From a virus (lineage: Duplodnaviria > Caudoviricetes): 27,153 nt of DNA. Where the stretch lies: the IMG/VR virus record IMGVR_UViG_3300030207_000144, positions 1-27,153 of that record; one strand, 5' to 3'. A program made the position numbers and the translations under genes. A model generated the notes under the pieces. It saw only the letters and a program-made list of their open reading frames with translations, was not told the DNA's origin and ran no database searches. The stretch's first letter is position 1, and each line of letters begins with the position of its first letter. Positions 150-24,000 of the stretch are shown here, piece by piece.

Positions 150-166
150 GTTAGTGTCGCACTAAC
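150..166. repeat. 17-bp palindrome copy 1 (GTTAGTG-TCG-CACTAAC)
   Basis: Read directly. The arms extend to TTT/AAA (147-169), and the site lies about 47 bp upstream of the -35 box at 214. Confidence 0.95.
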
Positions 167-213
167 AAACGTGACAGATAATATATAAACGTGCCAGATT
201 GTACGAACATCTA

Positions 214-242
214 TTGACACGTTACCATGTGTTCGCGATAAT
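214..242 (+). promoter_or_regulatory. sigma70-type promoter P1
   Basis: TTGACA (214-219), 17-bp spacer, GATAAT (237-242), upstream of an RBS and ATG 307. Confidence 0.85.
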
Positions 243-306
243 GGTCGGCGTCAACAGCGGGTGCTGTTGGCTATATAAACTTAACTGTCAACATAAGGAT
301 ATTGAC

Positions 307-819
307 ATGCGCACTTTAACTACTCAGACAATCTCAGCAATTTCAAATGCTGTATCACGTTCGATCAATGCGGACAAAGCAGGGGTCAAGGCGCTCGACG
401 CACTGATAGCAGACGGGTTCGATAAACCCACTGATTTCACTTCCCCGAAATCGGCTGACTCTACCGCGACAGCGGATGAGTTCGAAGCGATCAACGCGGC
501 CATCGTCATGGGGTTCAGCGCTGACGTTCGGAAGCTGCTACTTAAACCAGTAAAGTCACTGTCGGAAGAACAAAAAACGACACGGCGCTACTGGCAGCAA
601 CAGATAGGTGCACGTCGTAATGACTTCAAACGCCAGCTTGAAAAGAGACTGGCTGCTGACAAGCCAGACGGTGCTGGACCACGCAACCGCACGCTAGACC
701 AGCGGGTTCGGGACAACCTGAACGATGTGATCAAGGCGTGTCAGAACGCTGAGGAAGCCACCTTCGATGTGCCTGACATGGTCGCGAGAGTGAAAGCAGC
801 TCTCGAAATCTTGAAATGA
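307..819 (+). CDS. hypothetical early phage protein (170 aa, helical, basic central segment)
   Basis: ORF 199-819 re-started at ATG 307. AAGGA RBS at 295-299, and the promoter lies inside the longer TTG-start version. Confidence 0.85.
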   Translation: MRTLTTQTISAISNAVSRSINADKAGVKALDALIADGFDKPTDFTSPKSADSTATADEFEAINAAIVMGFSADVRKLLLKPVKSLSEEQKTTRRYWQQQIGARRNDFKRQLEKRLAADKPDGAGPRNRTLDQRVRDNLNDVIKACQNAEEATFDVPDMVARVKAALEILK

Positions 820-992
820 AACGACTGGGAGAGACAGCGGGGGCCATCATGGCCCTCGCACTCACCGGGTCTCTGATAGCACTCATGTTTGCTAACGTGT
901 TACTGGGATGTGACACATGGGACGAGACGCTTTGGACCCCATCCAATTCATGCATAACACCAACGATGGTCTGGGAAGCCATCACAGGGTAA
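816..992 (+). CDS. small membrane protein / possible lipoprotein (58 aa)
   Basis: Not in the ORF track. ATGA overlap with the upstream stop. Translates as MKRLGETAGAIMALALTGSLIALMFANVLLGCDTWDETLWTPSNSCITPTMVWEAITG, with a basic N-terminus, a hydrophobic stretch and LLGC. Ends just before a terminator. Confidence 0.75.
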   Translation: MKRLGETAGAIMALALTGSLIALMFANVLLGCDTWDETLWTPSNSCITPTMVWEAITG

Positions 993-998
993 CAATTG

Positions 999-1024
999 AA
1001 ACAGGGCTTCGGCCCTGTTTTTTT
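999..1024 (+). terminator. Rho-independent terminator
   Basis: AAACAGGGC-TTCG-GCCCTGTTT followed by further Ts. Confidence 0.92.
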
Positions 1025-1033
1025 GTGCCTGTT

Positions 1034-1214
1034 GATACCAGTTCCTAATGTCGCGCTGAGCCTCTGAGCACGTGTTAGCACAAGCGGTGTGACGCGAGAC
1101 TTGGTCCTACCATTGGTAATATTGCCGCCCGCATCATTACCCACAACAGCATTGTACGAAACTGTTAGTGCCGCACTAACACAAGATACCAGTTCCTAGT
1201 GTCGCGCTGAGCCT
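1034..1214 (+). repeat. 30-bp direct repeat pair GATACCAGTTCCTA(A/G)TGTCGCGCTGAGCCT
   Basis: Copies at 1034-1063 and 1185-1214, 29/30 identical. Confidence 0.92.
1164..1180. repeat. 17-bp palindrome copy 2 (GTTAGTG-CCG-CACTAAC)
   Basis: Read directly; intergenic. Confidence 0.95.
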
Positions 1215-1216
1215 TT

Positions 1217-1577
1217 GTTCGGGGTAATGTTCGTAATGTTCGGTAAAAGTTCGGTTTTTGAAAGTATCAATCGTACAATACGTTTTGATGTCAGCCGTTA
1301 GCAATTCACGCGAAGCGTTGGCATATCCTTCCTATCAGCTTTTGTAGTTTATTTAGTTTTCTTATTATATATATATATTATTCGTTTTATAAAAAAGTAT
1401 ATACGGGGGGTAAAGTTAGTGTGGCACTAACAATATTCGTTTTCTCCCCTCTTCGTTCTCCCCTCTCCGCGCTAGTCCTCACTCCTAAAATTAGCGAACA
1501 ATCGAACTTTACTTTCAAATCAAATACTTACTTCCGAACAATGTAAGAACTTTACACATAACAACAGAACTTTACAC
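1217..1577. other. putative replication origin (inverted iteron-like repeats around an AT-rich core)
   Basis: GTTCG at 1217, 1229, 1238 and 1249. AT-rich core at about 1340-1403. CGAAC/AGAAC at 1495, 1503, 1535, 1546 and 1566. GAACTTTAC occurs three times. Confidence 0.5.
1415..1431. repeat. 17-bp palindrome copy 3 (GTTAGTG-TGG-CACTAAC)
   Basis: Read directly; immediately right of the AT-rich core. Confidence 0.95.
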
Positions 1578-1600
1578 TTCTAAACACGTTTTGGTAACAT

Positions 1601-1629
1601 TTGACATACCTCGCTACCTATGAGATAAT
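1601..1629 (+). promoter_or_regulatory. sigma70-type promoter P2 with extended -10
   Basis: TTGACA (1601-1606), 17-bp spacer, TG at 1621-1622, GATAAT (1624-1629). Confidence 0.88.
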
Positions 1630-1727
1630 AGTTAAGTTGGTGAGGGGTCTAACAGCACCCGCTCTTGTCCTAACGACAGGTGGCCCCTCATCAACGAACT
1701 TAACCATATGTCATACAGGAGAACGAC

Positions 1728-2645
1728 ATGACAGACCAAAGCAATGTTAGTGCGACACTAACAAGTCAACCCGCAGTAACAGCACCATCCATTGGCTCTG
1801 CGTCAATGTTGGTAGAACTCAGCATCAGCACATGGACTGGACGCAAGCTAGACAAGAGTGCGTCACGTAATGTTGTCGCAATGAACAATGCCGACCGAGG
1901 TATTGCCAATGTGCACAAAAAGCTGCTGGGCAACTGCGATGAACTCACGGCTGTACAGAAGTTTACAGCTAACGTCCGTAACCTACATTACGACATGACC
2001 ATGCCGTGGTCAGACACTGGGCTTCGACTGCTGCCGACTGCTCAGTACTTCAAGTATCACGAAACATTGACCGAGGTGCAGTCCGAGTATCAGCGTCTCG
2101 TAGATGAATTCCTTAACACATACGACTGGGCCATCAGCCAGTCACAGGCTCGACTGGGTAAGCTGTTCTCATACAGCGACTATCCATCCGCCAGTAGTCT
2201 AGCGTCGAAATTCAAGTTTCGGTTCAGCTACATCCCACTGCCAGATGCGGGTGACTTCAGGGTGGACATTGGCAATGAGGGTAACGAGTTAGTACGTAAC
2301 CACTACGAGAATTACTACTCCGAGCAACTGACCAACGCTATGAATGATGTATGGCAGCGAGCGTTCAAAGCATTGAGCAAGATGTCCGAGCGACTCGACT
2401 ATGCCGATCACGAACAGAAGAAGGTGTTTCGTGACACCCTCGTATCCAACGTGGTCGATCTTGTCGAGCTACTGGACGTATGCAACATAACAGGTGACAG
2501 TCAGATGTCAGCTATGCGTATGAAACTGGACGATGCCCTACGTGGTATCACACCGGATGCGTTGCGCGAGGACGGCTACCTACGTGCAGAAACTAAACGT
2601 GCCGTTGATGATGTCATCAAGTCACTTCCTTCAATTGACCTTTAA
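1728..2645 (+). CDS. DUF3150-like phage/ICE protein
   Basis: 305-aa ORF with AGGAGA RBS. Motifs LSISTWTGRKLD, HKKLL, TMPWSDTGLRLLP and DYPS..L..KF resemble DUF3150 proteins that precede AAA/vWA pairs. Confidence 0.7.
   Translation: MTDQSNVSATLTSQPAVTAPSIGSASMLVELSISTWTGRKLDKSASRNVVAMNNADRGIANVHKKLLGNCDELTAVQKFTANVRNLHYDMTMPWSDTGLRLLPTAQYFKYHETLTEVQSEYQRLVDEFLNTYDWAISQSQARLGKLFSYSDYPSASSLASKFKFRFSYIPLPDAGDFRVDIGNEGNELVRNHYENYYSEQLTNAMNDVWQRAFKALSKMSERLDYADHEQKKVFRDTLVSNVVDLVELLDVCNITGDSQMSAMRMKLDDALRGITPDALREDGYLRAETKRAVDDVIKSLPSIDL
1746..1762. repeat. 17-bp palindrome copy 4 (GTTAGTG-CGA-CACTAAC), inside a CDS at +19
   Basis: Encodes V-S-A-T-L-T, residues 7-12. Confidence 0.95.
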
Positions 2646-2648
2646 TCA

Positions 2649-2665
2649 GTTAGTGCCGCACTAAC
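2649..2665. repeat. 17-bp palindrome copy 5 (GTTAGTG-CCG-CACTAAC)
   Basis: Lies between the stop at 2645 and the RBS at 2669. Confidence 0.95.
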
Positions 2666-2679
2666 AACAGGAGAACTAT

Positions 2680-3774
2680 ATGAACTCTGCAACTCAAATG
2701 TACTCACTCGGTCTTGCCCAAATAGGTAACGCTATTCGTGTCGGTGGTCATCAACGCACCATTCTAGTCGAAGGGCACATGGGCACAGGTAAATCCTCAC
2801 TGCTCAACACGCTATCACGTGAGTTACCAAACCGCCTTTCGTGCTACTTCGACTGTACCACCAAAGACCTCGGTGACATTTCCATCCCCGATCTGGCTCA
2901 CCTCGACAACGGTTCAGGGTACGTTACATACCTGACCAATGAGGAACTGGGTGCACACAACGATAAGCCGATTATTCTGATGATCGACGAATACGGCAAG
3001 GCCAACCCTGCTGTGAAGAACTCACTGCTACGCCTCATGCTCGAACGCAAGATTGGTAGCTACACGCTACACCCTGACTCGATAATCTTTGCCACCACTA
3101 ACCTCGGTGCCGAGGGTGTCGGTGATCTACTGCCACCCCATGCACGGAACCGCATCACGGTCGTGGCCTCACGCAAGCCAGACAACATGGAGTGGATCGA
3201 GTGGGGTATCAACAACGGTGTCGAACACACCCTGCTAGGTTGGTGCAAGGACAACCCGCACCTGTTTCACAGTTTTGAGGATGTCAAAGACCCCGACGAC
3301 AATCCCTATATCTACCACCCCAAGCAGCAGCGCAAGGCGTTCGTCACACCGCGTTCACTTGAGGCGGCGTCCGACTGGCTCAAGGTTCGAGATCAGTTTG
3401 ATGATCAGACCCTTACAAGTTTACTCATGGGTACTATTGGTGAACGTGGCGCTATGGACCTGATGGCCTTCGTCAAGCTGGCTGACCAGCTACCGTCATT
3501 GCAATCCATCAAGGATGAACCCAAGACCGCCAAGGTGCCGGACAGTGCTGCCGCAGTATGTATGGTTGTCTACCGTACGTTGTCTACTCTTGGGGCTGAC
3601 TGGGTTGACGCATGGATGGACTACATGGTGCGACTCGACAAGGAAGCGCAGGGTATGTTCGCCAACGGTGTGCAACCCGCGACCTATGCCAACCGCAAGG
3701 TGGTGATGACCAACAAGAAGTTTACTCAGTGGGCGATGGACAATAACTACATGTTCGCCGCAGACAAGAAGTAG
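2680..3774 (+). CDS. MoxR/dynein-related AAA+ ATPase
   Basis: Walker A GHMGTGKS, Walker B LMIDE, sensor-1 ATTN, arginine finger ARNR, sensor-2 TPRS. AGGAGA RBS. Confidence 0.9.
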   Translation: MNSATQMYSLGLAQIGNAIRVGGHQRTILVEGHMGTGKSSLLNTLSRELPNRLSCYFDCTTKDLGDISIPDLAHLDNGSGYVTYLTNEELGAHNDKPIILMIDEYGKANPAVKNSLLRLMLERKIGSYTLHPDSIIFATTNLGAEGVGDLLPPHARNRITVVASRKPDNMEWIEWGINNGVEHTLLGWCKDNPHLFHSFEDVKDPDDNPYIYHPKQQRKAFVTPRSLEAASDWLKVRDQFDDQTLTSLLMGTIGERGAMDLMAFVKLADQLPSLQSIKDEPKTAKVPDSAAAVCMVVYRTLSTLGADWVDAWMDYMVRLDKEAQGMFANGVQPATYANRKVVMTNKKFTQWAMDNNYMFAADKK

Positions 3775-3783
3775 GAGACCGTA

Positions 3784-5019
3784 ATGCTAGCCATAGGTAA
3801 ACAACTTACACCAGAGCAGCGACTGTCCAAGGCCGTCGTTGACATCATGGGCAACCCCAAATACGTTGCCCTCGCAGGTGTCCTTATGATTGGTGACCGC
3901 ACGGTGGTGGACGACATCCCTACCGCATGTACCAACGGACGTGATGAGAAGTATGGGCGGGGCTTTGTCGATTCGCTCAACGATGCGGAGCTACGGTTCC
4001 TCGTGCTTCACGAGGTATACCACAAGCTGTACAAGCACCTAACCACGTGGCGTCATCTGTATGACGACAATCCGCAGCTTGCTAACGTAGCCTGTGATTA
4101 CGTCATCAACGTCAAGATTGCAGATGACAACACGGACGGTTGGGCTACCCTACCGCAGGGCGGATGCTACTCAGACAAGTATCGTGGATGGGACAGCGCC
4201 GCAGTCTTTCGTGACATACGTGAAAACGGTTCACCACAAGATCAGCAACAGGGGGCAGGTGTAGCGTCAGGTGATGGTCAGCCGAGTGGTGATGGTCAGC
4301 CCCAACAACCGCAGGGGTTCGATGACCATGACTGGGATGGTGCTGCCGAACTCACACCCGATGAGCAGCGTGAACTTGCGCGTGATGTTGACGAGGCCAT
4401 ACGCCAAGGCGCATTGATCGCAGGTAAGGTTGGGTCAGGTGGTGATCGTGACCTCGAAGATTTGCTTACACCACAGGTGGATTGGCGCGAGGTATTGCGC
4501 GAGTTTGTTTACACCACATGTGCCGGTAATGACTACTCCACTTGGCAACGTCCCAATCGTCGCTACGTGTCATCAGGTTATTACATGCCTAGCGGTATCA
4601 GCGAGCAGGTGGGTGAGTTGGTCATTGCTGTTGATACGTCTGGCTCCATTGGTCAGAGGGAGCTTACGGTGTTCATGTCCGAGATACGTGGTATTTGTGA
4701 CACGGTGCAGCCCGAGGCCATACGCCTACTGTACTGGGATACCAAAGTATGTCAGGACGAGAAATACGACATGCACCAGCTCGATGATCTCGTCAAGACA
4801 ACCAAGCCCAAGGGTGGTGGTGGTACTAACGTAGAGTGCGTCACCAAGTACCTCACTGCCGAGGGTATCAAACCGCAAGCCGTCATCGTGCTAACGGACG
4901 GGTACCTTGGCGCATCATGGGGGCAATGGGCGTGCCCTCTGCTATGGTGCATCTTAGACAACAAATTAGCAAAGCCTGACACGGGTAAATACGTCAACAT
5001 ATCACCACAAAACTTCTGA
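3784..5019 (+). CDS. metallopeptidase-like (HExxH) + vWA domain protein (DUF2201-type)
   Basis: LHEVYH and N-x-A-x-D-x-x-I-N in the N-terminal domain, a Q/G-rich linker, MIDAS DTSGS, GGGGT and VLTDG. Adjacent to the AAA+ ATPase. Confidence 0.88.
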   Translation: MLAIGKQLTPEQRLSKAVVDIMGNPKYVALAGVLMIGDRTVVDDIPTACTNGRDEKYGRGFVDSLNDAELRFLVLHEVYHKLYKHLTTWRHLYDDNPQLANVACDYVINVKIADDNTDGWATLPQGGCYSDKYRGWDSAAVFRDIRENGSPQDQQQGAGVASGDGQPSGDGQPQQPQGFDDHDWDGAAELTPDEQRELARDVDEAIRQGALIAGKVGSGGDRDLEDLLTPQVDWREVLREFVYTTCAGNDYSTWQRPNRRYVSSGYYMPSGISEQVGELVIAVDTSGSIGQRELTVFMSEIRGICDTVQPEAIRLLYWDTKVCQDEKYDMHQLDDLVKTTKPKGGGGTNVECVTKYLTAEGIKPQAVIVLTDGYLGASWGQWACPLLWCILDNKLAKPDTGKYVNISPQNF

Positions 5020-5030
5020 GGAGAAGTAGC

Positions 5031-5918
5031 ATGTATAAGTACAAATTAGTTAGTGAAGCACTAACCCACCTTGATGCCGAAGGTAGAGAACCGACAGCCG
5101 CCAAGCAAGATCGAGCGCACAGATTTGCGGAAGCAGTTTGCAATCACCTAAGTGCCAAGATGTGCCTTAAAAATAGTTGCAGTTATTGGATATACCGTGA
5201 CGATTGTCCCTATTGTCTTGGGTGGGTGGCATACGGTGACTTTCGTTATACCGGCAGTACAGACGATATGTATGTTGTGTACTCTCACAACATCACGAAT
5301 GGCAAGTACAACGAGACTGCTAACCAGTATTACATGAAGATGTCCACCAACATCAATACGGCAGTGCGTAATGCTAAGAAGTTTTTACGTATTATGTCAC
5401 CGCAAGAGATTGCAGGCATACGTCTAAATCTAGCGCAGATAGCAGTGCAAGGCGTGGTTACTGACGCACGTGAAGAGTTTATTGATATACGTAACAGGAT
5501 CATAGACGTGGAGACAAGCCTGTACTCCGCACGAATCAGTAGGGACTCGGTGCTCATGACCGAGTTACGTCATCTGATGAACAGTAACCACAAGTTTATC
5601 GATCCTACTTTCGGTGAAAATCTCACTACATTCTTTGCTAAGTGGGATGAGCTTGACACCTTGCAGACTCGCACAGTGCCTATGTGGTTTGTCCGTGTGT
5701 ATGAACGCACGGGGCAGCAGATGTTCGATGTGGTTTCCATCGACAATGCCGAGGATTCGTGGAAAGCAAAGATGGGTGATGTATTACGTTACACAACAGA
5801 TGGCTTGCCCGAGGACATCATGCAGAAACTGTCTGTCCTCAATATCTTGGAGAAGGATGACTACGTTGATGGCGTAGGGTTCTCTGCGGGTGAGGGCATG
5901 TTTTATGTCGTACGGTGA
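5031..5918 (+). CDS. hypothetical phage protein (295 aa)
   Basis: Long ORF with GAGGAG RBS, in the same operon. Confidence 0.85.
   Translation: MYKYKLVSEALTHLDAEGREPTAAKQDRAHRFAEAVCNHLSAKMCLKNSCSYWIYRDDCPYCLGWVAYGDFRYTGSTDDMYVVYSHNITNGKYNETANQYYMKMSTNINTAVRNAKKFLRIMSPQEIAGIRLNLAQIAVQGVVTDAREEFIDIRNRIIDVETSLYSARISRDSVLMTELRHLMNSNHKFIDPTFGENLTTFFAKWDELDTLQTRTVPMWFVRVYERTGQQMFDVVSIDNAEDSWKAKMGDVLRYTTDGLPEDIMQKLSVLNILEKDDYVDGVGFSAGEGMFYVVR
5049..5065. repeat. 17-bp palindrome copy 6 (GTTAGTG-AAG-CACTAAC), inside a CDS at +19
   Basis: Encodes V-S-E-A-L-T, residues 7-12. Confidence 0.93.
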
Positions 5919-6171
5919 CGACTTACCACGTGATGATAACGTATACCGCGTATACGTATCGCCTCGTACCAATACTGTTGAAGTACTAGCTATTGGCATA
6001 GAAGTTGACAGTACGATTGAGGGCGAGTACGATTCAGTGGATGCCCTTCCCTTGTGGATGCAAGAGAAGGTTGCCCTACTCATGATGACCAGTCTGGATA
6101 AGCCAACCAGTACAGTCGAGGGAGTAGGCAGACGGATTGACGCCAATGTTTATTGGATATTCCGTGCGTGA
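5905..6171 (+). CDS. hypothetical phage protein (88 aa)
   Basis: ATG 5905 overlaps the end of the upstream gene. The C-terminus LPLWMQEKVALL...VEGVG resembles the upstream protein's LPEDIMQKLSVL...VDGVG. Confidence 0.8.
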   Translation: MSYGDDLPRDDNVYRVYVSPRTNTVEVLAIGIEVDSTIEGEYDSVDALPLWMQEKVALLMMTSLDKPTSTVEGVGRRIDANVYWIFRA

Positions 6172-6172
6172 T

Positions 6173-6189
6173 GTTAGTGCGGCACTAAC
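6173..6189. repeat. 17-bp palindrome copy 7 (GTTAGTG-CGG-CACTAAC)
   Basis: Lies between the stop at 6171 and the terminator at 6191. Confidence 0.95.
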
Positions 6190-6190
6190 A

Positions 6191-6218
6191 AAGGGGGCTT
6201 CGGCCCCCTTCTTATCTT
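6191..6218 (+). terminator. Rho-independent terminator
   Basis: AAGGGGGC-TTCG-GCCCCCTT followed by a T-rich tail (cttatctt). Confidence 0.8.
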
Positions 6219-6228
6219 GGAGATGGAA

Positions 6229-6357
6229 ATGAATTGTAAGAGAGACGAAGAGGACGGTTGGTTGCCTGATGAAGAGTACAGTGTGTCTCAGGCAATTATT
6301 TTATCCGCTATCCTGTTATCCCTTGCCATCTTGGTGGGGTCAGTTCCGTGGCTATGA
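6229..6357 (+). CDS. small protein with C-terminal transmembrane helix (42 aa)
   Basis: Not in the ORF track. GGAG RBS at 6219-6222. Translates as MNCKRDEEDGWLPDEEYSVSQAIILSAILLSLAILVGSVPWL. ATGA-coupled to the next gene. Confidence 0.7.
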   Translation: MNCKRDEEDGWLPDEEYSVSQAIILSAILLSLAILVGSVPWL

Positions 6358-6581
6358 TACCAGTTCCGAGGGGCAACACGGATGACGAACGGGGCGAGAT
6401 ACAAAAGCGATTAGATGACAACGTGTGTTCTTGGTGTATGAGTACGTTGAGACTGGTTGAAGACACATACGTGGCTGATAGACGTAGGATAACGCGCCAG
6501 TGCGAGAAGTGTAGCAATGTAGTTGTGGATCATTTTAAGTTTGGAGGAAAGCATGGCGATGACACCGGAAGCGAAAGTTAA
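6354..6581 (+). CDS. zinc-ribbon protein (75 aa)
   Basis: CSWC...CEKC motifs; start at the ATGA overlap. Confidence 0.75.
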   Translation: MIPVPRGNTDDERGEIQKRLDDNVCSWCMSTLRLVEDTYVADRRRITRQCEKCSNVVVDHFKFGGKHGDDTGSES

Positions 6582-6930
6582 AAAGAAAGTAGCGGCACAC
6601 CTAAAGACGTTAGGTGCTTACTACTTCTACCCCGTCACAGGGGGCTACGGTAAGAGTGGTGTACCTGACATTATTGGATGTCATGAGGGTAGATTTTTTG
6701 GTATCGAATGTAAGGCCGGGAAAAACAAACCTACGCCCTTACAAGAAAAGAACTTAACAGACATAAAAACTAGCGGCGGCATAAGTCTAGTCATCAACGA
6801 AGACAATATAGATGACGTGTTGATTTATGTTGGTGGTCAGAACCGTGACCCGCGACAGTTTGAGTTTGATTTTGAAGCGTCAGAGGCACGTCACGATGAC
6901 GTGTTGATCTATGAAAAAACAACGAACTGA
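6553..6930 (+). CDS. VRR-NUC domain nuclease (Holliday junction resolvase-like)
   Basis: TPEAKVK, GVPDII, IECKA and PTPLQ motifs. GGAGG RBS at 6543. Confidence 0.9.
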   Translation: MAMTPEAKVKKKVAAHLKTLGAYYFYPVTGGYGKSGVPDIIGCHEGRFFGIECKAGKNKPTPLQEKNLTDIKTSGGISLVINEDNIDDVLIYVGGQNRDPRQFEFDFEASEARHDDVLIYEKTTN

Positions 6931-7075
6931 ACGAGAGTGGACCATCATTGCCGTGGAGTGTGAGACTGCTTATCTACTTGCGCCGTGGTATTCACCAATG
7001 CGCCTGTTTTTCTTTTTAGGTAAGAAGTACGCCAGACGAAAGGCTGAACTAATAGGAGAAGCCAATGAAAAATAA
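6911..7075 (+). CDS. hypothetical protein (54 aa)
   Basis: Not in the ORF track. MKKQRTEREWTIIAVECETAYLLAPWYSPMRLFFFLGKKYARRKAELIGEANEK fills the gap and overlaps both neighbours. No clear RBS. Confidence 0.55.
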   Translation: MKKQRTEREWTIIAVECETAYLLAPWYSPMRLFFFLGKKYARRKAELIGEANEK

Positions 7076-7274
7076 ACACGGACACACACCACAAGAGGCA
7101 GCCCGTGCACAGGTCCTCGACATGATTGAGGCACTCGCCCGATCAGACGAAGATCACAGTCAATACGTCGAGACACCATCGTTTAACGCCTCAAAGCGTA
7201 AACAACTTGCACGGCTGTATTACAAACTGGGCCATCAGTGGAAGTTTGATCTCGGGGCAATTTTAGAAACGTAG
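7065..7274 (+). CDS. hypothetical protein (69 aa)
   Basis: AGGAGA RBS; tightly packed with neighbours. Confidence 0.75.
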   Translation: MKNKHGHTPQEAARAQVLDMIEALARSDEDHSQYVETPSFNASKRKQLARLYYKLGHQWKFDLGAILET

Positions 7275-7286
7275 GAGAATTTAGGA

Positions 7287-7484
7287 ATGAACAAGTCTAT
7301 TGATGAACAAATAAAAGAGCTTAGGGAAGCTCTTGCAGGAACAATGATGAAAGCGACTGGACTGAAGTTGATCCACACAGGAATTAAGGCAGGGGACATG
7401 GAACTCGTCAAAACTGGGTGGGAGATGCAAGAGGGCTTGTATGACGACCTCAGCAAGGCGATAGGTGTTCTTAATGGAGAATAA
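7287..7484 (+). CDS. hypothetical protein (65 aa)
   Basis: AGGAGA RBS; helical sequence character. Confidence 0.75.
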   Translation: MNKSIDEQIKELREALAGTMMKATGLKLIHTGIKAGDMELVKTGWEMQEGLYDDLSKAIGVLNGE

Positions 7485-7496
7485 CGGAGAACAGTG

Positions 7497-7895
7497 ATGG
7501 GAGACGTAATTGATATAACCGAGAGGTTGGCCCGTAAAAAGCAGGGGACACTACCTAACAAGTTAGCCGTTCGTGGGTTAAAGAATTTGTACGTAACGGC
7601 GAATTGCGAAGATTACTTGCATGACTACTTTGGGGACAAAGAGGACGCGAGGGAATTCATGCTTAACTGCATGATGCGCTTTATCCGTAACGACTTTGGG
7701 GCGTTAGGCCAAGAAGATATAGAGGGTAACTGGCACAGTATGGAGAACGGCGGGACGGTGACAGGATGTTACCCGTTTGACGAACGGCAGTTTTTAGGGG
7801 AAGAGGCCATTGAAGATACATCAGAGCTTCAGATGTGGGTGGTGCTCGATTCAGACGGGCAGACATTGACTATGCTAGTGGAAGAGGATTGTTAA
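7497..7895 (+). CDS. hypothetical protein, divergent member of the plasmid/phage 'GDWG...ED...N...TTILLPxEY' family
   Basis: GGAGA RBS at 7486. RNDFGALGQEDIEGN...GCYPF...MWVVLDSDGQTLTMLVEEDC parallels that family by eye. Confidence 0.65.
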   Translation: MGDVIDITERLARKKQGTLPNKLAVRGLKNLYVTANCEDYLHDYFGDKEDAREFMLNCMMRFIRNDFGALGQEDIEGNWHSMENGGTVTGCYPFDERQFLGEEAIEDTSELQMWVVLDSDGQTLTMLVEEDC

Positions 7896-7918
7896 ATTTG
7901 GGGTAATTTGCATCAGGC

Positions 7919-8037
7919 GAGTGTGAGCGTCAGGTGTTGTTGTCTTTAGACGACTCCGTACGAGAAATAGGTCGAATGAAGTGGTCGCCCCAGTTACTTG
8001 ACACGGCCCAATTCGACCGACTCACACACTCATTTTT
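7919..8037 (+). ncRNA. candidate multi-stem structured RNA
   Basis: Paired segments GTGTGAG/CTCACAC, GTTGTC/GACGAC and GGTCGAAT/ATTCGACC in a 157-bp intergenic gap. Confidence 0.4.
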
Positions 8038-8052
8038 AGAGAGGAGAACTAT

Positions 8053-8382
8053 ATGGACGATTTTGAAGTTAAGTTGTTAAAGAAAAACTCATCCCCTAAA
8101 GCCGAGGGGGAAAGAATATCCCTTCTTGAAGAGGCAATCGAACTCACTAGTGGAAGCCGCAACGCCGATTACGGTGACCCATACGACAACCACAATCTGA
8201 TAGCCAATATTGCTACGCTTACCACAGGTAAAGAACTTACCGCTTATGACATCGTCCTTGTGCAGATGGCTACCAAGTTGGCACGGATGAGAGTCACTCG
8301 GTCGAAGCGTGACCATTATGTTGATCTCGCGGCATACACAGGCATTGCCTACGAGTGTCTGCCACCAGAGGATTCAGATTGA
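8053..8382 (+). CDS. DUF6378-like phage protein (possible nucleotide-metabolism domain)
   Basis: LLEEA...RNADYGDPYDNH..IA...KLAR...DHYVDLAAY. AGGAGA RBS. Confidence 0.8.
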   Translation: MDDFEVKLLKKNSSPKAEGERISLLEEAIELTSGSRNADYGDPYDNHNLIANIATLTTGKELTAYDIVLVQMATKLARMRVTRSKRDHYVDLAAYTGIAYECLPPEDSD

Positions 8383-10211
8383 TGGATTTAATTACGGTAG
8401 ATTTTGAAACGTATTACGACAAGGATTATTCCCTGTCTAAATTAACTACTGAGGAGTACATACGTGATCCCCGATTTGAGGTGATCGGCGTGGGTATTAA
8501 GGTGAACAATGAAGGAACTCAATGGGCAAGTGGAACCCACGACGAACTTAGGCAGTATCTACACAGCTTCCGCTGGTCAGAAAGTATGGTACTTGCTCAC
8601 AACACTATGTTTGATGGTGCCATTTTGTCTTGGTTGTTTGATGTTCATCCTCGCGTGTATACCGATACTTTGTGTATCGCCCGTGCTGTTCATGGCGTGG
8701 AAGTTGGTGGCAGTCTCAGGGCACTATCTGAAAGATATTCAATCGGTGTTAAAGGCACCGAGGTTCTAAATGCTTTAGGTAAACGTCGAGCGGACTTTAA
8801 TGACGAAGAACTGTCTGTGTACGGCGACTACTGCATAAATGATGTCGAGCTAACACACAAGCTATTTAATATCTTTTTGCGCAAGGGCTTTCCTAAGCAA
8901 GAACTTAGGATAATAGACCTGACCTTGCGTATGTTTACGGAGCCGTGCTTAGAACTGGACATTGGTTTACTTGAACAGCATCTGGAAGACACAAGAGAGC
9001 GGAAAGACCAACTCCTTGAACACGCAGGTGTGTGTAAAGATGATCTTATGTCCAACCCCAAGTTTGCTGAGATGCTCCAAGGCTTGGGTGTCACTCCGCC
9101 AACAAAGATCAGTTTGACCACGGGTAAGGAAACCTTTGCCTTCGCGAAAAATGATGAGGCTTTCAAAGCATTAGCCGATCATGAGGATGACCGAGTGCAA
9201 TCCGTAGTTGCGGCACGTTTGGGCACAAAAAGTACCCTTGAGGAAACACGTACTAACAGGTTTATAGATATAGGTAAACGTGGAACTCTCCCGGTACCAG
9301 TAAGGTATTACGCCGCGCATACTGGGCGATGGGGTGGTGACGATAAGATCAACATGCAGAACTTACCTAGCCGTGGGCTGAATGGTAAAAAGTTAAAGCG
9401 CAGTATCCTCGCACCAGAGGGCTACACGTTGATCGACGCCGATAGCGCACAGATAGAAGCGCGTGTACTCGCGTGGCTTGCAGAGCAAGACGATCTGACT
9501 CAGGCGTTCGCCAACAAAGAAGATGTGTACAAGATTATGGCATCCGCTATCTATCAGGTACCTGTGGATAAGATAGATAAGGACCAACGTTTTGTCGGTA
9601 AGACTACCATCCTTGGCGCAGGTTACGGCATGGGAGCCGTGAGGTTCCAAGCACAGCTAAAGACGTTTGGGTTTGATATGAAACTAGACGAAGCTCGTCG
9701 TGTTATTAACGTCTATCGAGAGTCGAATGCGGATATCCATAGGCTATGGCGCAACTGTCAAGACATGCTCAAACACATGGTCAATGGTGACAGTGTACCA
9801 ATTGGTAAAGACGGGGTGCTGGAAGTGTTGGGATCGGAACGTGGTGTCCTGCTTCCGTCAGGTTTAGTACTGCGCTATGACGACTTATCAGTTGAAACCG
9901 ACGACAGGGGATTACAATACAGTTATAGGACACGCCGTGGGCGCACCAGAATATATGGTGGGAAGGTTACTGAAAATGTGTGTCAGGCGATAGCACGTTG
10001 TATTATTGGTGAGCAGATGCTACAAATCAGTAAGAAATGTCGCATCGTGCTAACTGTGCATGACTCGATTGTTGTTTGTGCGAAAGACGATGAAGTCGAT
10101 GAAACACAGGCGTATGTCGAGCAATGTATGCGTTGGGTACCAGCATGGGCAGAAGGTCTCCCCATTGATTGCGAAAGTGGGATAGGTAAATCGTACGGGG
10201 ATTGTGAGTGA
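8382..10211 (+). CDS. family A DNA polymerase with 3'-5' exonuclease
   Basis: ExoI DFETY, ExoII AHNTMFD, ExoIII YCINDV, HTGRWGG..NMQNLP, motif A DSAQIEARV, motif B RFVGKTTILGAGYG and motif C VHDS. Start at the TGATG overlap at 8382. Confidence 0.95.
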   Translation: MDLITVDFETYYDKDYSLSKLTTEEYIRDPRFEVIGVGIKVNNEGTQWASGTHDELRQYLHSFRWSESMVLAHNTMFDGAILSWLFDVHPRVYTDTLCIARAVHGVEVGGSLRALSERYSIGVKGTEVLNALGKRRADFNDEELSVYGDYCINDVELTHKLFNIFLRKGFPKQELRIIDLTLRMFTEPCLELDIGLLEQHLEDTRERKDQLLEHAGVCKDDLMSNPKFAEMLQGLGVTPPTKISLTTGKETFAFAKNDEAFKALADHEDDRVQSVVAARLGTKSTLEETRTNRFIDIGKRGTLPVPVRYYAAHTGRWGGDDKINMQNLPSRGLNGKKLKRSILAPEGYTLIDADSAQIEARVLAWLAEQDDLTQAFANKEDVYKIMASAIYQVPVDKIDKDQRFVGKTTILGAGYGMGAVRFQAQLKTFGFDMKLDEARRVINVYRESNADIHRLWRNCQDMLKHMVNGDSVPIGKDGVLEVLGSERGVLLPSGLVLRYDDLSVETDDRGLQYSYRTRRGRTRIYGGKVTENVCQAIARCIIGEQMLQISKKCRIVLTVHDSIVVCAKDDEVDETQAYVEQCMRWVPAWAEGLPIDCESGIGKSYGDCE

Positions 10212-10882
10212 GTGTGGCACCGTGGTCATTTAGCAAGATTAAGGCATTTGAGCAATGCCCCAAACAGTTCTATCACGAAAAGATATTGAAGGAGTATCCG
10301 TTCGTTGAGACTGAAGCTATCAGATACGGCAACGCATTCCACAAAAGCGCCGAGCACTACGTTAAGGACGGTACCCCACTACCTGATAAGTTTACGTATG
10401 CTCAACCAGTGCTTGATTCTTTGAAAGCAAAACAAGGAGTCAAGCTGTGTGAACAAAAGATGGGGATCACAGAAGACCTTGAACCGTGCGGTTTTTATGA
10501 CAGTAACGTGTGGTTTCGCGGTATCGCAGATTTACTAATCCTCGATACGGAAAATCAAACAGCGTGGGTGATTGATTATAAGACTGGTAAGAATGCACGG
10601 TACGCAGACAAAGGTCAGCTAGAACTGATGGCGCTATCGGTGTTTACACATTATCCCGACATCAAGAAGGTCAGGGGTGGACTAGTCTTTGTGGTCAGTA
10701 ACGACCTTATAAGAGATACCTATACTGCATGGGTAGATGAGTTTGAACTGTGGCGCAAGTGGTCAGGTAAATACAACGCCATGAAGATTGCAGAACGTGA
10801 GAATGTTTGGAACCCACGCCCTAACGGATTGTGCAAACGCCACTGTCCAGTAACTGTATGTCCTCATAATGGGAGCAACTAA
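10208..10882 (+). CDS. PD-(D/E)XK nuclease, Cas4/RecB-like
   Basis: SFSKIKAFEQCP, RGIADL, IDYKTG and QLELMA motifs, plus a C-terminal C-x3-C-x4-C. Confidence 0.9.
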   Translation: MSVAPWSFSKIKAFEQCPKQFYHEKILKEYPFVETEAIRYGNAFHKSAEHYVKDGTPLPDKFTYAQPVLDSLKAKQGVKLCEQKMGITEDLEPCGFYDSNVWFRGIADLLILDTENQTAWVIDYKTGKNARYADKGQLELMALSVFTHYPDIKKVRGGLVFVVSNDLIRDTYTAWVDEFELWRKWSGKYNAMKIAERENVWNPRPNGLCKRHCPVTVCPHNGSN

Positions 10883-11169
10883 TGCCATACAAGAACCCCA
10901 AAGATCGGCCTAAACAAAAGAATAAGCCTGTCGGGAGTAAAGAATTTAAGGCACGTATGGAACGTCAACGTGCTCGAAGAAAGATAGATAAGACAGGTAA
11001 AGACGCCAACAAAAATGGGAAAGCCGATAAGCGAGAGGGTAAAGACGTGGCGCACAAGAAGCCATTATCGCGTGGCGGTTCCAACAAAGATGGCGTCACG
11101 GTGCAGAGTCGTCGCCGTAATCGTGCGGCGGGTGGGGCTTTGAGCAAAGGGCGTAAGAAACGACGTTAG
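10882..11169 (+). CDS. basic HNH-like protein
   Basis: KDVAHKKPLSRGGSN...RRRNRA; very rich in K and R. Confidence 0.75.
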   Translation: MPYKNPKDRPKQKNKPVGSKEFKARMERQRARRKIDKTGKDANKNGKADKREGKDVAHKKPLSRGGSNKDGVTVQSRRRNRAAGGALSKGRKKRR

Positions 11170-11181
11170 TGCCACACTAAC
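11165..11181. repeat. 17-bp palindrome copy 8 (GTTAGTG-CCA-CACTAAC)
   Basis: Supplies the TAG stop (11167-11169) of the HNH-like gene. Confidence 0.95.
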
Positions 11182-17954: not shown

Positions 17955-18037
17955 GACAGACGGTATTACGGTCCACCCTACCGAGAGTCTGTCGTTCTCC
18001 ACCTCGTTCGACCCCCTCTTCGGAGGGGGTATTTTTT
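17955..18037 (+). ncRNA. candidate small regulatory RNA
   Basis: Extended -10 TG-A-TATAGT (17940-17948), hairpin GACAGAC/GTCTGTC, single-stranded GTTCTCCACCTC, and its own terminator. Confidence 0.45.
18011..18037 (+). terminator. Rho-independent terminator at convergence of the two gene blocks
   Basis: ACCCCCTC-TTCG-GAGGGGGT followed by ATTTTTT. Confidence 0.9.
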
Positions 18038-21000
18038 AGGGCAGCATAAACCCGTTTCTTGTTCCCATAAGATGGTCTTCTGCGAGTTTACGCATTGCTG
18101 GGGACAGGGTAACGCCGTTGTACATAGTCTCGGATGTTTTTATATGCTGCTTTATTGAGCGATCCAAGGTATCAAGTGTAATAGCAAAACTTGGATGCGC
18201 TTTGTTGAACTTAGCTATCTCACGTTTAGCATCTGCTAGTGCATCCCAATCACCTTGCCGTGCAGCAACGTAATACTTTTTGGTTATGTTAGATTTTTTA
18301 TTGGCAATTGCGATGTCGATACCTTTAACACGTTGGTTGTTCTCTTGGATGCGTATGTACTCCGCTGGTGCGAACCCGAAGAATTGTGCGAACAACTCAC
18401 CACCAGTCATATCGTCATAGATTGGATCGCCACGGCGCGTGTATATACCACCATCCTGTTGGTACCGACCCACTGACTTGTACATGTTAGAAAAACCCAC
18501 AGGCATGATGCTTTCGATGCCGCGCTGTATTTCACCGTTATATAAATCTATGATGCCGCGACCCGTCCGTTTCGCCACGCTGAGTGCAGGGCCACCAATG
18601 TAGTACCCTACGGCTTCTTCCGCTGATGGGTTGGGGTTGTATCTGTTCTCTTGCAGCAGCAGCCCAGTTAGACGTACACGTGATGCCACGTCAGCACCTA
18701 TTTCTAGAGTGTCGAGAACTTGGTTAAACGCACCTTTGTACCAACCCTCACCGACATATTCACGAACGATGCTGTTAAAGTCATCCTCTTCGTCTCCGAG
18801 TAAAAGTAAGTCCGCCATCAACTGGAACGCACCGTATAACGGAATACCGTGTACACCTGCAAAGAACAGGGACGAACCGTGTATGCCGATTAGTTGGTTC
18901 CGAGCGATCTTGCGCATGGCGGGATCGGATTCTTTGGATAACATAGTCGCAGCAGTTTTGAGCATTGTGTAGTACATGCGTAGACCGTAAGTCTTATACA
19001 TCATCGCCACACGCCCGATGTGTTCTTGCGCGACACGCGGTGCAGTCTCTAGGGTAGAGCCGCCGTTATATTCTTGCGTATCGTAAAGAGCCTCCTCTGC
19101 CGCCATCTGCTGTCGTTGTGCTTTTGGCATATTGGGATTTTCGGCAGTGATGCGATCTAATGCGAGGTTGTACGATGCAACCATCGTCACCTGCCGGTTA
19201 AACCGCTCCGACTGGTTAAACATCATCGCCGATATACCTGTGCCGTAGTCAATGGCCGCTGAGATTTTTCGTCCTAACGTGTCAGTTCTACGTGCCCTAC
19301 CACCTTCTTGAAGACCCAAGGCATCAAAGATAAACGAGCGGTTAAGGTGCCCACGTTCCGACGCCAGCCGTACGACTGGGGCAATACGCTCTAACTCCTT
19401 TAGACGTTCTTCTGGTATGTCTTCATCTTTCTTAACTACAAAGTCACCGTTGTCGGTAATGTCGTAGTAGGCATCCAAGCCATGAGCCAGCGCGATCTTG
19501 TCGAGCTTGGTCTCCCCCATACCACGTGCACCTGTAACGAACGATGCTGCGGTCATTAATTCGTCGTAGGCTTTTTGGTATCCGTACCGTGCGCCAAGCA
19601 TAGGCATGACGAACATAGGTATCTGTGCGGTCTGCACCATAGCCGAGGCTACGTTGAAACCGATTGTGCCAACAAACGCGAGTTGGTTGAACATACGTAC
19701 GTATCGCTCAAGCCCCTTCTGTTTTGCGCCATACTTAGCGAACTCCATGCGTACTTTAATCTCTTCACGTAAGGTATCGAACTCAAACTGCTTATCTTTT
19801 GGTTGTTCTAATTCGTTGAGCTGCACTTCCATATTTTGAATAAGCGCGTTGTACTTTAACTTCTCTACCTGTCGAGCGAGGTCAAAGCCCTTACTCTTCA
19901 TGGCGTACACCGCATCCTGCATATAGCCGGGCGTACCCTTACGTTTTTGCAGGGACTTAGCGAATGATGACTCTGGGAGCGCATCAATAAATAGGCGCAT
20001 GATTTCAGCTTGTACTTTGTCATCAACTTTGTTTGCGCTCAGCGAATCAAGCACCTGCTTCACAAACGAGGAAGACGGTGCGTTGTTGAAGTCGGACGTT
20101 TTGAAGTCACCATCTGTACGATTGACAGTGTTCGTAATGACATCGGGGTCTTTTAGAAGCGCGTCATAAACTCGGTCGCGTTGCCTCTTACTATCGAACA
20201 TCTGAAACACGTACTTATCGCGCTCTGCATCAACGGCACTGTCTTTGTATTGGAACTCTAGTTTGTACTGGCCTTCACGTAGCAGCGGGAAGTAAACGTC
20301 TAAGGTATTACTGTCAAACAACTTAGCAAATACTTCCTTCTTCAACTCTGCCGCTGCGTCAGGGTTCTTGGATAATGCTATGTCAATACGCCCGTTGATC
20401 GCATCTTTGAGGTTCTCGTGCAGGCTACGGTACATATCGCGCATCGTAAGGTAGGCTTTCCGCCCGTCAGCACCAAGTGCCTCCCAGTCGTCACGTTGTG
20501 CACGCCAAATCGCTTCAAGATCGTTGCCGTTATCATCAATTTTGCCTTGGTACTCAGTAACAGGTTTAGTTGGGTCTACCTGATAGATAGTAGCGCCGTA
20601 CTCTTGGCTGTAGATTAAGTCGTTGAGGTTCTTCTGCTTTTCTTTAGTACCACCACTAGCGATCCACTTGTCCACAACCTTTACTTGGTCACGTACAAAG
20701 TCGTCAGCACGCGCCATTGAACCCCGCTGCCGTTCCATTAACTCGTGGAACTCTGCCGCAAGTTTACCTAGCTTAGCGTCTGCTCGTTTAGCTATGTCGC
20801 TGAGTGCCTGTGAGTCCACCAGTTTCGGCAGAACAAAAGCGACCTTCTGATTCAGCGCACTAAGGGTGTCGAACGCACCGTCAGCCCATTCGCCACGGAA
20901 CTTCTGAGTAAGCGGCTGGTGCAACGCTTTCTGCGTCTCACCCATGCCTTTCATCTCTTCTTTGACCCCTTTTGCCGTGGACTCCATCGCAAGCTCGTTT

Positions 21001-24000
21001 GCGTTACGGAACTTAGGAGCGGGGGCAAGGATACCTTCTATAAGCATGTCGGCGGCTGTTTTCGCTGACCCAATTTCTTTAGGCCGCATCCCTACAAGTT
21101 TACGTAAGAAGTTTCCTACGCTGTTATAGAAGCGTTGCAGGGCGTTTATCTTTGAGCCATCGGGATTGATAGCAGCTAGTTCGGCTTGAAATTCTGGATT
21201 AGACATCGCTTCAGCTACGAACTCGTCCACATCCTTCGCACCATACGCGGTACCAAGATAATCTTTAACGTCTTCAAATAACTTTGTGAGCTGCTTCGTT
21301 AAGGGATGGCTCTTGTTCGCTAACGTAGCGGCGGTTGCTGCATGAGTAGCTTCGTGCAGTAGCACATGAGGACTCATTCCGGTTTCGGAATCGAGTTTGA
21401 TTGTATTAGTCTTTGGGTCAAACAAACCCGCAACAGGATTTCCCGCCGCATTTTTTAAGTTATCGACAATTTCTACCCGTGTACCACCAGCGGCACTGTC
21501 AATCATGTGAACCTGTGACGCGTCGAAAGCTACATACTCTGAAGCATTCTCGTTCATTATGCCGTCATACCCTTGACTCTTTAGCTCTGCAATACGCTCT
21601 TTTGATAGCAACATAGATGACATAGTACGTTCGCGAACTTCTATGCGTTTTTCATTTTTAACGTCTAGCTTTGTTTTACGCCCCAAAGCCACATCAATTC
21701 GATCTAACAAAGACATGTTTTTTAAGTCATCTATGATTAGAGGATTCCGAATGTCCAACATAACTTCATACACACGTCCTTCACCCTCTAAACCTTTTGG
21801 AGGGGTCTCTATCGAAAAACCCCCGCCCGGCAATTTACTACCAGCAGTTTTGGCGAGCCGTGATCTATGATAGCTTTCAGCTAAAGACCTTCTAGGGCTA
21901 AAATATAAACCTTGCGTAGCATCACCCGGTTTGAACTCAGTAATATCTTTTTTAGCACTGCCGTGATACACAATGTTTTTTACTTTTGAGTTTCGTGTAG
22001 CAGCCTGCGCAGCTTTAAGGTTGGCACGATCATTAATGATCTCATTTAACTTGGTAGCTAGCGCAAGAGGACGGGCACGTCTTTGGGGTTTTGACAGATA
22101 CAATTTTCCTGAGTCTACATACATTTCATGAAAAGTATTAAGGTAGACTAGCGCCCCGCGTAAATCCCCAAAACGTAAAGCGGTTTCTACAGAAGGATGA
22201 ACAGTTCTATCTAAACCGTAAAGACCGGGATAAACAGAGCCACGCGCTAAATTCTTTTCAGACCTTTGAGCTATTTCTTCTAAACTAGTACGTAAGTCTT
22301 GGCGCATATCAGCTTCGACTTGCGCTTGTTCTGCCGCTTCTTTTGCAACTAGTTTGGCTTCACGCTGACGGAACATATCAACGTAGTCAGTGCTTTGAAT
22401 GCGTTGTATCTCACGTATTTCTTGCGCAAGCGTCTCGTCAATCCATTTATTAATTTCAGGTGACAGATTAGCTTGCGCCCAATCAAGCACTTGTTGCGCA
22501 GGTTTACTACCCATACCTTGGAAGAAAGTGACTTCGTTCTGGTCCATGTCAGGAGTCTTACGGAACTGCGGAGTGGTATTAGCCACATCGAAGATAGCCA
22601 TATACAAGCCATCAATAGGGCGAGGTACTCTACCCAAGTACGTTATTACAGCTTTACCCACTTTATCGCGGGCGGCTGCACCATCATTTAAGAGCGTAAG
22701 TATTTTTAATCGGTCGTCAGGGGTAGTGCGCTCTTTCCCCACAGTTTCATTGAAGGTTTGGCTAATTTGCCGCGCATATTGTTTTACTGGTTCGAGCAGT
22801 TGTTCGAATCTTTCAGTAAGTTGTGCAGACGCAGTATCTTTAGGTGCCTGCGACGGAGTAGTCTTCTTGCCCCTGCGCGTCGTAGAAGCTGTTTTTGTCT
22901 TCGATGATTTTTTTGTAGTATCTTGTTTACGTGTAGTAGTGGACCGTTTAGTTTTTGCAGTAGGGGTTGTTGTTTTTGCTTCTATAGAATCTAACTTGTC
23001 CGCTATCTGCGCAACACGTCTATCTGTTTCCGATGCTACTTCTTCGCTCGGTGGCGTAGGCACCTCGGTAATCGGCGCAGTACGTCTATCTACCAAAGCC
23101 GAATCTACATTGTCTGCAAAAGCAACACGTCTATCTGTTGTCGGCGCAGCACGTCTATTTACTGAAGCCGAATCTACATTTTCTGCAAAAGCAACACGTC
23201 TATCTGTTGTCGGTGTCACGCTTTCGCTCGGTGGCGTACGTACCTCGGGAGCTACTGTTGCAGAAGGACGCCCTCTACGTCGTGGCTGGAACAATTCAAG
23301 TTGCGCTTCTGGCACCCCTTCAAGTTCTCGCGCTACATTAAGTCGAGTTTGTTCGGCTACGCTTTGGTTATTAGCAAAGTCAGTAAACTGTTTACGAATT
23401 ACCGGATCATTAAGGTCCTTACCTTCTGTGCGTTTACGGATTGGCGCTTTTGGCGATACGCCCAGTCCGTCCATAAATTCTTTTGTTACTATTTTAGGAG
23501 CAGGTGGTGTTTCCTCTACAGGCGGTGTCTTAGGACGGCCCATACCGGGGAACGACGGCTGTGACGGAGTAGCCGATGCACGCGCCCTACGTTCTGGGAT
23601 ACGTGCTTCTAGGTCTGTAAGTTGTGTATCCTCTGGCGTAGACTCGATGGTCTCAAGCGGTTCTTGTGGTCTTGTTTCTTGCTGTTCTTGCGGTTTTGTT
23701 TCTTGCTGTTCTTGTGGACGCATACCCGCAAACGCGTCTGCTGCGCGACGAATACGTTGTGACTCTCGCTTAGTAGGTTTAGCCCGTTCTCCCTTTGCAA
23801 TGTTGCGTCGAGACAGTTCTTTAGAAAAACGTTTTTCAAGATTAACGTAGCTACCTGTGGTCGGCTCACCGATTACAGCTTCTAGTGCAGCTTCACGTGG
23901 TCTCATTTTGTCTGCACGCGCTTCGTCTTTTATCGCTGCGGCTTGTGTTTCACGCTCAGACCTACCGCGCACCCGATCTAGTTCAGCTTCTGCTACTGCA

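Follow-up and report, generated by a model that had tools for sequence, protein, structure and literature searches.

A stretch of phage DNA of 27,153 nt (IMG/VR virus record IMGVR_UViG_3300030207_000144; "the window" below means this whole stretch) carries in its early region an array of eight copies of a 17-bp palindrome, GTTAGTG-N3-CACTAAC. We found that such an array is present throughout the family of phages related to the window, and that it is confined to the early arm of the genome and strongly conserved. The palindrome type switches with one gene, the first early gene (307..819, + strand, 170 aa, called g307 here), while identity in the genes lying between the sites remains as high as 100%. 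Judging from these comparisons, the g307 protein is probably the one that reads the palindromes at the level of DNA.

The array in the window and in its relatives

A pattern scan of the window that allowed up to three mismatches returned the same eight copies that the first-pass annotation had listed (starting at 150, 1164, 1415, 1746, 2649, 5049, 6173 and 11165) and nothing further; all eight had 0 mismatches, and there were no near-variants. Shuffled sequences gave a mean of 1.44 matches at the same tolerance, and none of 100 shuffles gave eight. Of the spacer lengths from 0 to 8 that were tried, only N3 occurs in the window. The centre triplets were as first described, including their fit to Y-S-R in the window; because Y-S-R is self-complementary, the centres collapse to four when both strands are merged (TCG/CGA twice, CCG/CGG three times, TGG/CCA twice and AAG once). 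As a rule for the family Y-S-R does not stand, with 48 different centres among 234 exact sites from 38 relatives, and it is rather a habit of the lineage.

The positions ascribed to the sites (gene ends, gene starts, the flanks of an AT-rich stretch and upstream of promoter P1) also agreed with the list of open reading frames (ORFs) and the sequence. Site 1 (150..166; no strand is assigned to any of the eight) lies 47 bp upstream of the -35 box, at 214, of P1, the predicted sigma70 promoter of the first gene (214..242, + strand, 11/12 consensus). Sites 2 (1164..1180) and 3 (1415..1431) flank the AT-rich stretch at about 1340-1400, the former following a putative terminator and the latter preceding P2, the predicted sigma70 promoter of the main early/replication operon (1601..1629, + strand, 11/12, extended -10). 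Two sites begin at codon 7 of a gene and cover codons 7-12: site 4 (1746..1762) in the DUF3150-like gene starting at 1728, and site 6 (5049..5065) in the gene starting at 5031. Site 5 (2649..2665) begins 3 nt past the stop at 2645, at the DUF3150/ATPase junction and immediately ahead of the ribosome-binding site, while site 7 (6173..6189) begins 1 nt past the stop at 6171 and is followed by a terminator-like hairpin at 6191-6210. Site 8, the last one (11165..11181), provides the stop codon TAG at 11167-11169 and precedes the SNF2 helicase-SSB-primase genes. The spacing is uneven (251-4992 bp), and the predicted + strand transcripts do not include sites 150, 1164 and 1415. As had been noted at first, no site falls on a -35 or -10 box: none of the eight overlaps the three best sigma70 matches of a promoter scan (214-242, 1601-1629 and 6005-6033). 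The classical arrangement of a repressor operator, with the site over -35/-10 or the start, was found at 0/8 window sites, and among site-promoter pairs in relatives the core promoter was overlapped in 1/72.

An exact-pattern scan found the motif in at least 206 stretches, and genes homologous to those of the window are present on the multi-copy ones. A DUF3150 match was obtained for 153 loci, of which we kept 92 non-redundant ones; the sampling was seeded by window proteins and is biased toward the palindrome type of the window. All 92 loci have one dominant repeated palindrome in 3-11 copies each, while the maximum for a repeated palindrome in shuffled loci (20 shuffles) was 1-2. The first-pass annotation had proposed scanning related phages for lineage-specific variants that co-vary with one protein, and this was borne out, as about 15 palindrome types were found among the 92 loci, tracking g307. 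The GTTAGT-N3 bin of 62 loci wrongly takes in L277 and L285, which have GTTAGTC arms, and the mixed locus L008; all three are counted as GTTAGTG type in the type-versus-identity, centre and variant, placement and junction-occupancy counts, and L277 and L285 are outside the g307 statistics. In five near-complete genomes of 60-67 kb, the whole array of 8-11 sites spans 8-15 kb.

Placement was assessed for 400 sites in 63 loci with a crude ORF caller, in DNA of which about 79% is coding. There, 274 sites fell between genes and 42 across a start or stop; within genes, the first 30 codons had 57, the last 15 codons 10 and the deep interior 17, so that 373/400 are intergenic, across a boundary or within the first 30 codons. 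Most sites stand directly after a stop and 10-30 nt ahead of the next start. Certain junctions are clearly preferred: a site occupies the DUF3150 start in 57/62 cases, that of the ATPase in 47/57, of VWA in 28/50, of the 5031 gene in 13/43, of VRR in 15/37 and of SNF2 in 5/9, and occupancy was nil at four other genes (0/41, 0/29 for PolA, 0/20 for PD-(D/E)XK and 0/15). A site is also found 85-226 bp upstream of the start of the first gene in 40/49 relatives. In L326, a site inside the VWA gene is spelled by synonymous codons, and the same peptide is encoded without a site in TTTACG-type relatives; gain of this site is more parsimonious than loss. Sites with foreign arms occur in about 5/92 loci, and thus hybrids between types form but are rare. 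One example is L237/L326, where a GTTAGTG genome has two foreign TTTACG-type sites, at 289 and at 18 bp upstream of the DUF3150 match; a cognate site adjoins one of them, and the place looks like a recombinant patch.

The palindrome type follows the first early gene

Homologues of g307 were detected by profile search in 76/92 loci; among the 16 others, 14 have less than 1.5 kb of upstream DNA, and the remaining two are L277 and L285. The identity of g307 separates pairs of the same type from pairs of different types with an area under the curve of 0.89, the corresponding values for seven neighbouring genes being 0.66-0.81. Likewise, the nearest neighbour shares the palindrome type in 64/66 cases for g307, 57/64 for DUF3150, 43/56 for the ATPase and 15/22 for PolA. 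On trees of 55 rows, built with FastTree and carrying long-branch warnings, the type changes 12 times along the g307 tree, which is the minimum for 13 types, and 15 times along the DUF3150+ATPase tree. Where DUF3150 is at least 75% identical, g307 identity is at or below 24% in 34/35 pairs of different type (the exception shares arms and differs in the spacer; these pairs are non-independent and reduce to about seven independent contrasts), and it is below 35% in just 3/269 pairs of the same type. The region 307-819 had been named at first among possible readers, and this suggestion fits well; the type tracks the sequence of g307 more closely than those of its neighbours.

The most telling comparison is that of L269 and L272, whose DNA is about 97% identical, with the ATPase and VWA more than 99% identical. 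In this pair the g307 block is replaced, and so is every aligned site, inside a patch of 20-30 bp; divergence reaches 36% within 15 bp of the sites and is 3.9% elsewhere. L269 additionally carries two unrelated insertions. The pattern is repeated in L225/L287 (36% divergence near sites versus 8% elsewhere), L289/L277 is likewise a switch, and a control pair of the same type is flat (10% near sites versus 12% elsewhere). The wholesale switch of one gene together with all sites, in genomes that are nearly identical otherwise, shows that there is strong selection on each site. Near-identity of the genes between differing sites is most simply explained by gene flow everywhere except at the co-adapted loci.

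As for the protein itself, the AlphaFold model of the g307 monomer is confident and all-helical (pLDDT 91, pTM 0.62); its linker at 122-125 is weak, and the middle domain modelled alone has a pLDDT of 94. When this domain was searched with VIA, sigma-factor chains took the first three ranks and 12 of the top 50 places, among them sigmaE region 4 bound to -35 DNA. The predicted resemblance to the helix-turn-helix (HTH) of sigma region 4 is weak and only a lead. Residues R94, Q99, I100 and A102, which the GTTAGTG type conserves and other types rarely have, lie in a long basic helix (helix 87-118). No family match was found in PHROGs, Pfam, PDB sequences or GenBank phages; the ESM Atlas returned hypothetical viral clusters only, with the phiC31 repressor scoring 0.76-0.79, below the lead threshold; and a homologue was seen in 0/6 cultured distant relatives. 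The earlier idea of a dedicated cis-element system with a dimeric reader is supported, with dimerisation of g307 inferred from the symmetry of the sites only. The array is real and family-wide, and sequence comparison gives it a well-supported candidate reader, which comes from no known family.

What the sites may do

Our best guess, by analogy with stoperators, is that the array consists of roadblocks which define compatibility types. We consider it an evenly balanced proposition that the palindromes are double-stranded DNA sites for a g307 dimer acting as a transcription roadblock, the gene and its sites being exchanged together between close relatives. In this scenario g307 would be made first, from its own promoter-terminator unit, its HTH-like domain (residues ~50-117) would bind each half-site of 7-8 bp, and a flexible dimer would tolerate spacers of 3 or 4 bp. 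Bound g307 at gene junctions, from P2 downstream to the helicase-primase block, would then slow or stop the host RNA polymerase. A resident phage might in addition act as a brake on incoming phages of its own type and not on those of other types, and such same-type exclusion could keep many types balanced in one recombining population. Roadblock control of elongation is favoured because the sites stay off promoters and recur along the P2 operon as far as the helicase-primase block.

Several observations weigh against this reading. L277 and L285 have a first gene of 203 aa that the g307 profile does not detect (hhalign probability 5%). L276 shares its arms with L327/L328, and its g307 is 20% identical to theirs at a DUF3150 identity of 83-85%; indeed L276, L008 and L037 all have GTTAGT arms together with first genes whose likeness to the core is only about 20%, L008 and L037 being long branches on the g307 tree. 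As g307 evolves fast, part of the type signal is plain divergence, and one same-type control, the window against L208, is noisy (39% near sites versus 19% elsewhere). On the side of protein structure, the best VIA match (Z 5.5, root-mean-square deviation 3.0, 62 residues) has a Z in the range that the tool calls a common arrangement, and Foldseek found no match for g307 or its middle domain among PDB and viral structures, apart from one uncharacterised viral protein (E 0.017). The flanks are biased, with a 3' A in 220/233 sites versus a 5' T in 164/233, a polarity that a pure dyad does not predict. The sites are symmetric and lack the orientation that stoperators need, according to the accessible discussion in PMC4351075. 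Finally, it is hard to explain why a lytic phage should block its own replication genes, and the phages appear to be lytic because a tyrosine integrase (PF00589) was found in 0/5 near-complete relatives (serine integrase and parABS were not searched for).

The main rival, which we regard as possible yet rather unlikely, is that g307 binds the same sites to organise DNA, either by bridging or anchoring the genome end that enters first or by licensing an origin between 1164 and 1415, so that only cognate genomes would be pulled in or replicated. The array starts beside a divergent gene resembling a terminase small subunit, at what is likely the packaging end; the site upstream of P1 is kept in those 40/49 relatives, and an AT-rich stretch with direct repeats has a site on either side. 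Symmetry and promoter avoidance would need no special pleading here, and the few sites that do lie deep in genes (17/400) would fit as well. On the other hand, an organiser does not readily account for spacing as uneven as 251-4992 bp, nor for an array that ends at a gene junction and not at a fixed distance (8-15 kb).

Both of these readings take the palindromes as double-stranded sites. It is improbable that they act instead as RNA or single-stranded DNA hairpins, serving in processing, in translation control or as N4-like hairpin promoters. Their common position just past a stop, with the next start 10-30 nt away, would suit such a role, as would the polarity of the 3' flank and the fact that 7/8 window sites form a stem in the predicted minimum-energy RNA fold. 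Yet 23/27 one-mismatch variants are not G-U wobbles (13/15 without L008 and L277), and the most frequent of them copies the half-site of another type; TTTACG-type sites mix G and C half-sites that are incapable of pairing. Folding z-scores are unremarkable (just -0.1 to -2.4), Rfam gave no match, and three window sites lie outside predicted transcripts. A 3-nt centre is shared by matS and the N4 loop, and N4 promoters need a fixed loop and a virion RNA polymerase. With 48 different centres the loops here are free, unlike the N4 rule, and no N4-type virion RNA polymerase was seen in the window, which is a partial genome; the N4-like hairpin put forward in the first-pass annotation is not supported, neither a fixed loop nor a pairing-dependent stem having been found. 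More than 10 GTTAGTG or GTTAGGG loci have N3 and N4 spacers together in single genomes, and the variants, these spacers and the placement speak for binding sites in double-stranded DNA rather than for hairpins or recombination sites.

It is very improbable that a host regulator or another phage protein reads the sites, even if a few genomes do combine the same arms with a very divergent g307. The two other candidates named at first do not hold: a TTTACG-type genome and one of GTTAGTG type have the same HTH domain (that of the protein at 13214; 57/57 identical), and across one type switch DUF3150 stays 99-100% identical, and therefore neither is the reader. A host factor fares no better, since near-identical phages of different type would require different host factors, and in GTDB genomes the 19-bp form of the palindrome amounts to 40 scattered stretches, 39 of them single and one a tandem triple. 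To our knowledge, and by eye, the host motifs CtrA, LexA variants, CIRCE and matS differ from the palindrome. The triple is found in a Lewinella metagenome-assembled genome (L378:3001-3108) as three intergenic tandem repeats of 44-45 bp, each with the same 19-bp palindrome, and is probably unrelated to the phage array. Least probable of all are recombination boundaries for gene shuffling, another of the original suggestions: two deletions in Cluster O have been attributed to recombination between repeats of this kind (accessible text of PMC4351075) and 9/57 indels have a site at one end, but none of the 57 indels of at least 100 bp (non-independent events) has sites at both ends, centres differ, spacers are neither identical nor of fixed length, and insertions also separate genomes of different type.

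Known repeat systems, genomic context and meaning

Dispersed palindromes read by one dedicated protein each are known from MatP/matS and from the phiC31 repressor, whose 17-bp conserved inverted repeats belong to a temperate phage. No fold match to MatP was listed for g307, and its sole link to the phiC31 repressor is the sub-threshold feature score (0.76-0.79). The closest precedent is in Cluster O mycobacteriophages such as Corndog, phages without integrase in which 17-bp dyad repeats occur in more than 30 copies genome-wide, with a predicted dimeric reader; according to the accessible text of PMC4351075, the reader and the function are not known. The likeness is substantial and includes invariant 7-bp arms, a free 3-bp centre, lack of orientation, and a location that is mostly intergenic or near starts and mostly off promoters. 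Accordingly, the statement that the element matches no known motif stands for the sequence and not for the architecture, for which the 7-3-7 arrangement of Cluster O is a precedent. The differences are that Cluster O has other arms and spreads its copies over the whole genome, while here 8-11 lie in an early arm of 8-15 kb, and that the accessible text describes no type switching there, while here the candidate reader co-switches with about 15 site types (PMC4351075).

Cluster A stoperators, as far as covered by the accessible parts of PMC6550527 and PMC9283540, are likewise many dispersed sites outside promoters with a phage-encoded reader that diverges with the motif, and elongation block and type-specific exclusion have been proposed for them. 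They are asymmetric 13-bp sites, oriented, bound by a monomer and found in temperate phages, whereas the array described here is symmetric and unoriented, the window centres being present in both orientations. No homology of g307 to the Cluster A repressor was detected (no Pfam, PHROG, PDB-sequence or fold match was listed). The SAS/ESAS repeats of Cluster K also stand near gene starts in the non-structural arm, and their inverted-repeat consensus differs between subclusters; in the accessible text of PMC3203893, ESAS have imperfect 17-bp arms, a spacer of 4-13 bp and a tie to a 13-bp repeat resembling a ribosome-binding site, whereas here the arms are perfect, 7 bp long and found also away from starts. 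The array is thus not a member of the Cluster O, Cluster A stoperator or ESAS systems. We found no account of the motif or of the family's array in the literature covered, which excluded subscription papers and supplements, and the main text of PMC9599517 has neither "palindrom" nor "inverted repeat".

Other phages have arrays of their own. MinM2 (L357, OQ594354.1), which has DUF3150/MoxR/VWA genes and no detectable g307 homologue, carries a GGTTCAG-N-CTGAACC-type palindrome 19 times in 30.7 kb, with many of the copies 31-41 bp ahead of annotated starts. Rhizobium phage RHph_TM3_14A (L362, MN988472.1) has 23 copies of a GTTACC-N6-GGTAAC-type palindrome over 45 kb, including late genes, and CRP-901 (L360:12027-14310) has four copies of a TGTGACA-centred imperfect palindrome ahead of small genes.

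The window is a 27-kb phage piece whose first protein was also found on a 61-kb contig; to the left of the window, a matching contig has opposite-strand ORFs whose sequences read as terminase, portal and capsid genes, the capsid protein being 64-71% identical to capsids of MinM2, DSL-LC04 and HTVC023P. No close cultured relative was found (ATPase at most 28% and PolA at most 36% identical), and the search for a host gave an empty DUF3150 scan of GTDB contigs and only scattered matches in the motif scan of GTDB. The + strand of the window encodes the DUF3150-like protein, an AAA ATPase, a VWA/metallopeptidase, a VRR-type nuclease, DNA polymerase A, a PD-(D/E)XK nuclease, an SNF2 helicase, the HTH protein (13214), SSB and a DUF927 primase. 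On the - strand, 18036-25586 encodes a polyvalent protein of 2516 aa; its domains include ART-PolyVal and LPD39, and it has a PHROG match that is DarB-like. The DUF3150-like/AAA ATPase/VWA-metallopeptidase module (1728-5019) heads the P2 operon, and relatives of its ATPase include N4 gp24-like proteins; that the g307 reader is a target of this module is speculative. Next to g307 there is a small hydrophobic ORF (816..992, + strand), which is often, not always, exchanged with it (91% identical in the L269/L272 switch), and a terminator-like hairpin with a T run (999..1026, + strand), read from the sequence and absent from the terminator-scan list, closes the g307 unit. An origin-like block, independent of palindrome type, is made up of 1034-1066, 1185-1217, 1227-1260 and 1340-1400. 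The first two are 33-bp direct repeats (1034..1217, no strand assigned), a separate motif that, in relaxed form, occurs in 40/56 relatives across nine palindrome types; the TAATGTTCG repeats of the block occur in 35/56. G-rich tracts at 1-135, left of the first site and between the early genes and the oppositely transcribed ones, are a possible packaging or end signal.

What is new over Cluster O is a named protein with a named site, and about 15 natural protein-site pairs which can serve as specificity controls; in vivo work could build on cultured phages with analogous arrays (the MinM2 group, RHph_TM3_14A). The type switching points to unstudied competition or self-recognition among abundant aquatic phages. 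A bolder idea, which we put forward only tentatively, is that g307 and its roughly 10 cognate sites form a lock and key for self-identity in lytic phages: they would set compatibility types, with entry, transcription or replication open to genomes of the same type only, and would be one co-adapted unit under balancing selection, with the genes between the sites freely exchanged. If this is true, new programmable DNA-binding specificities could be drawn from the reader family, which would bring its own natural recognition code.

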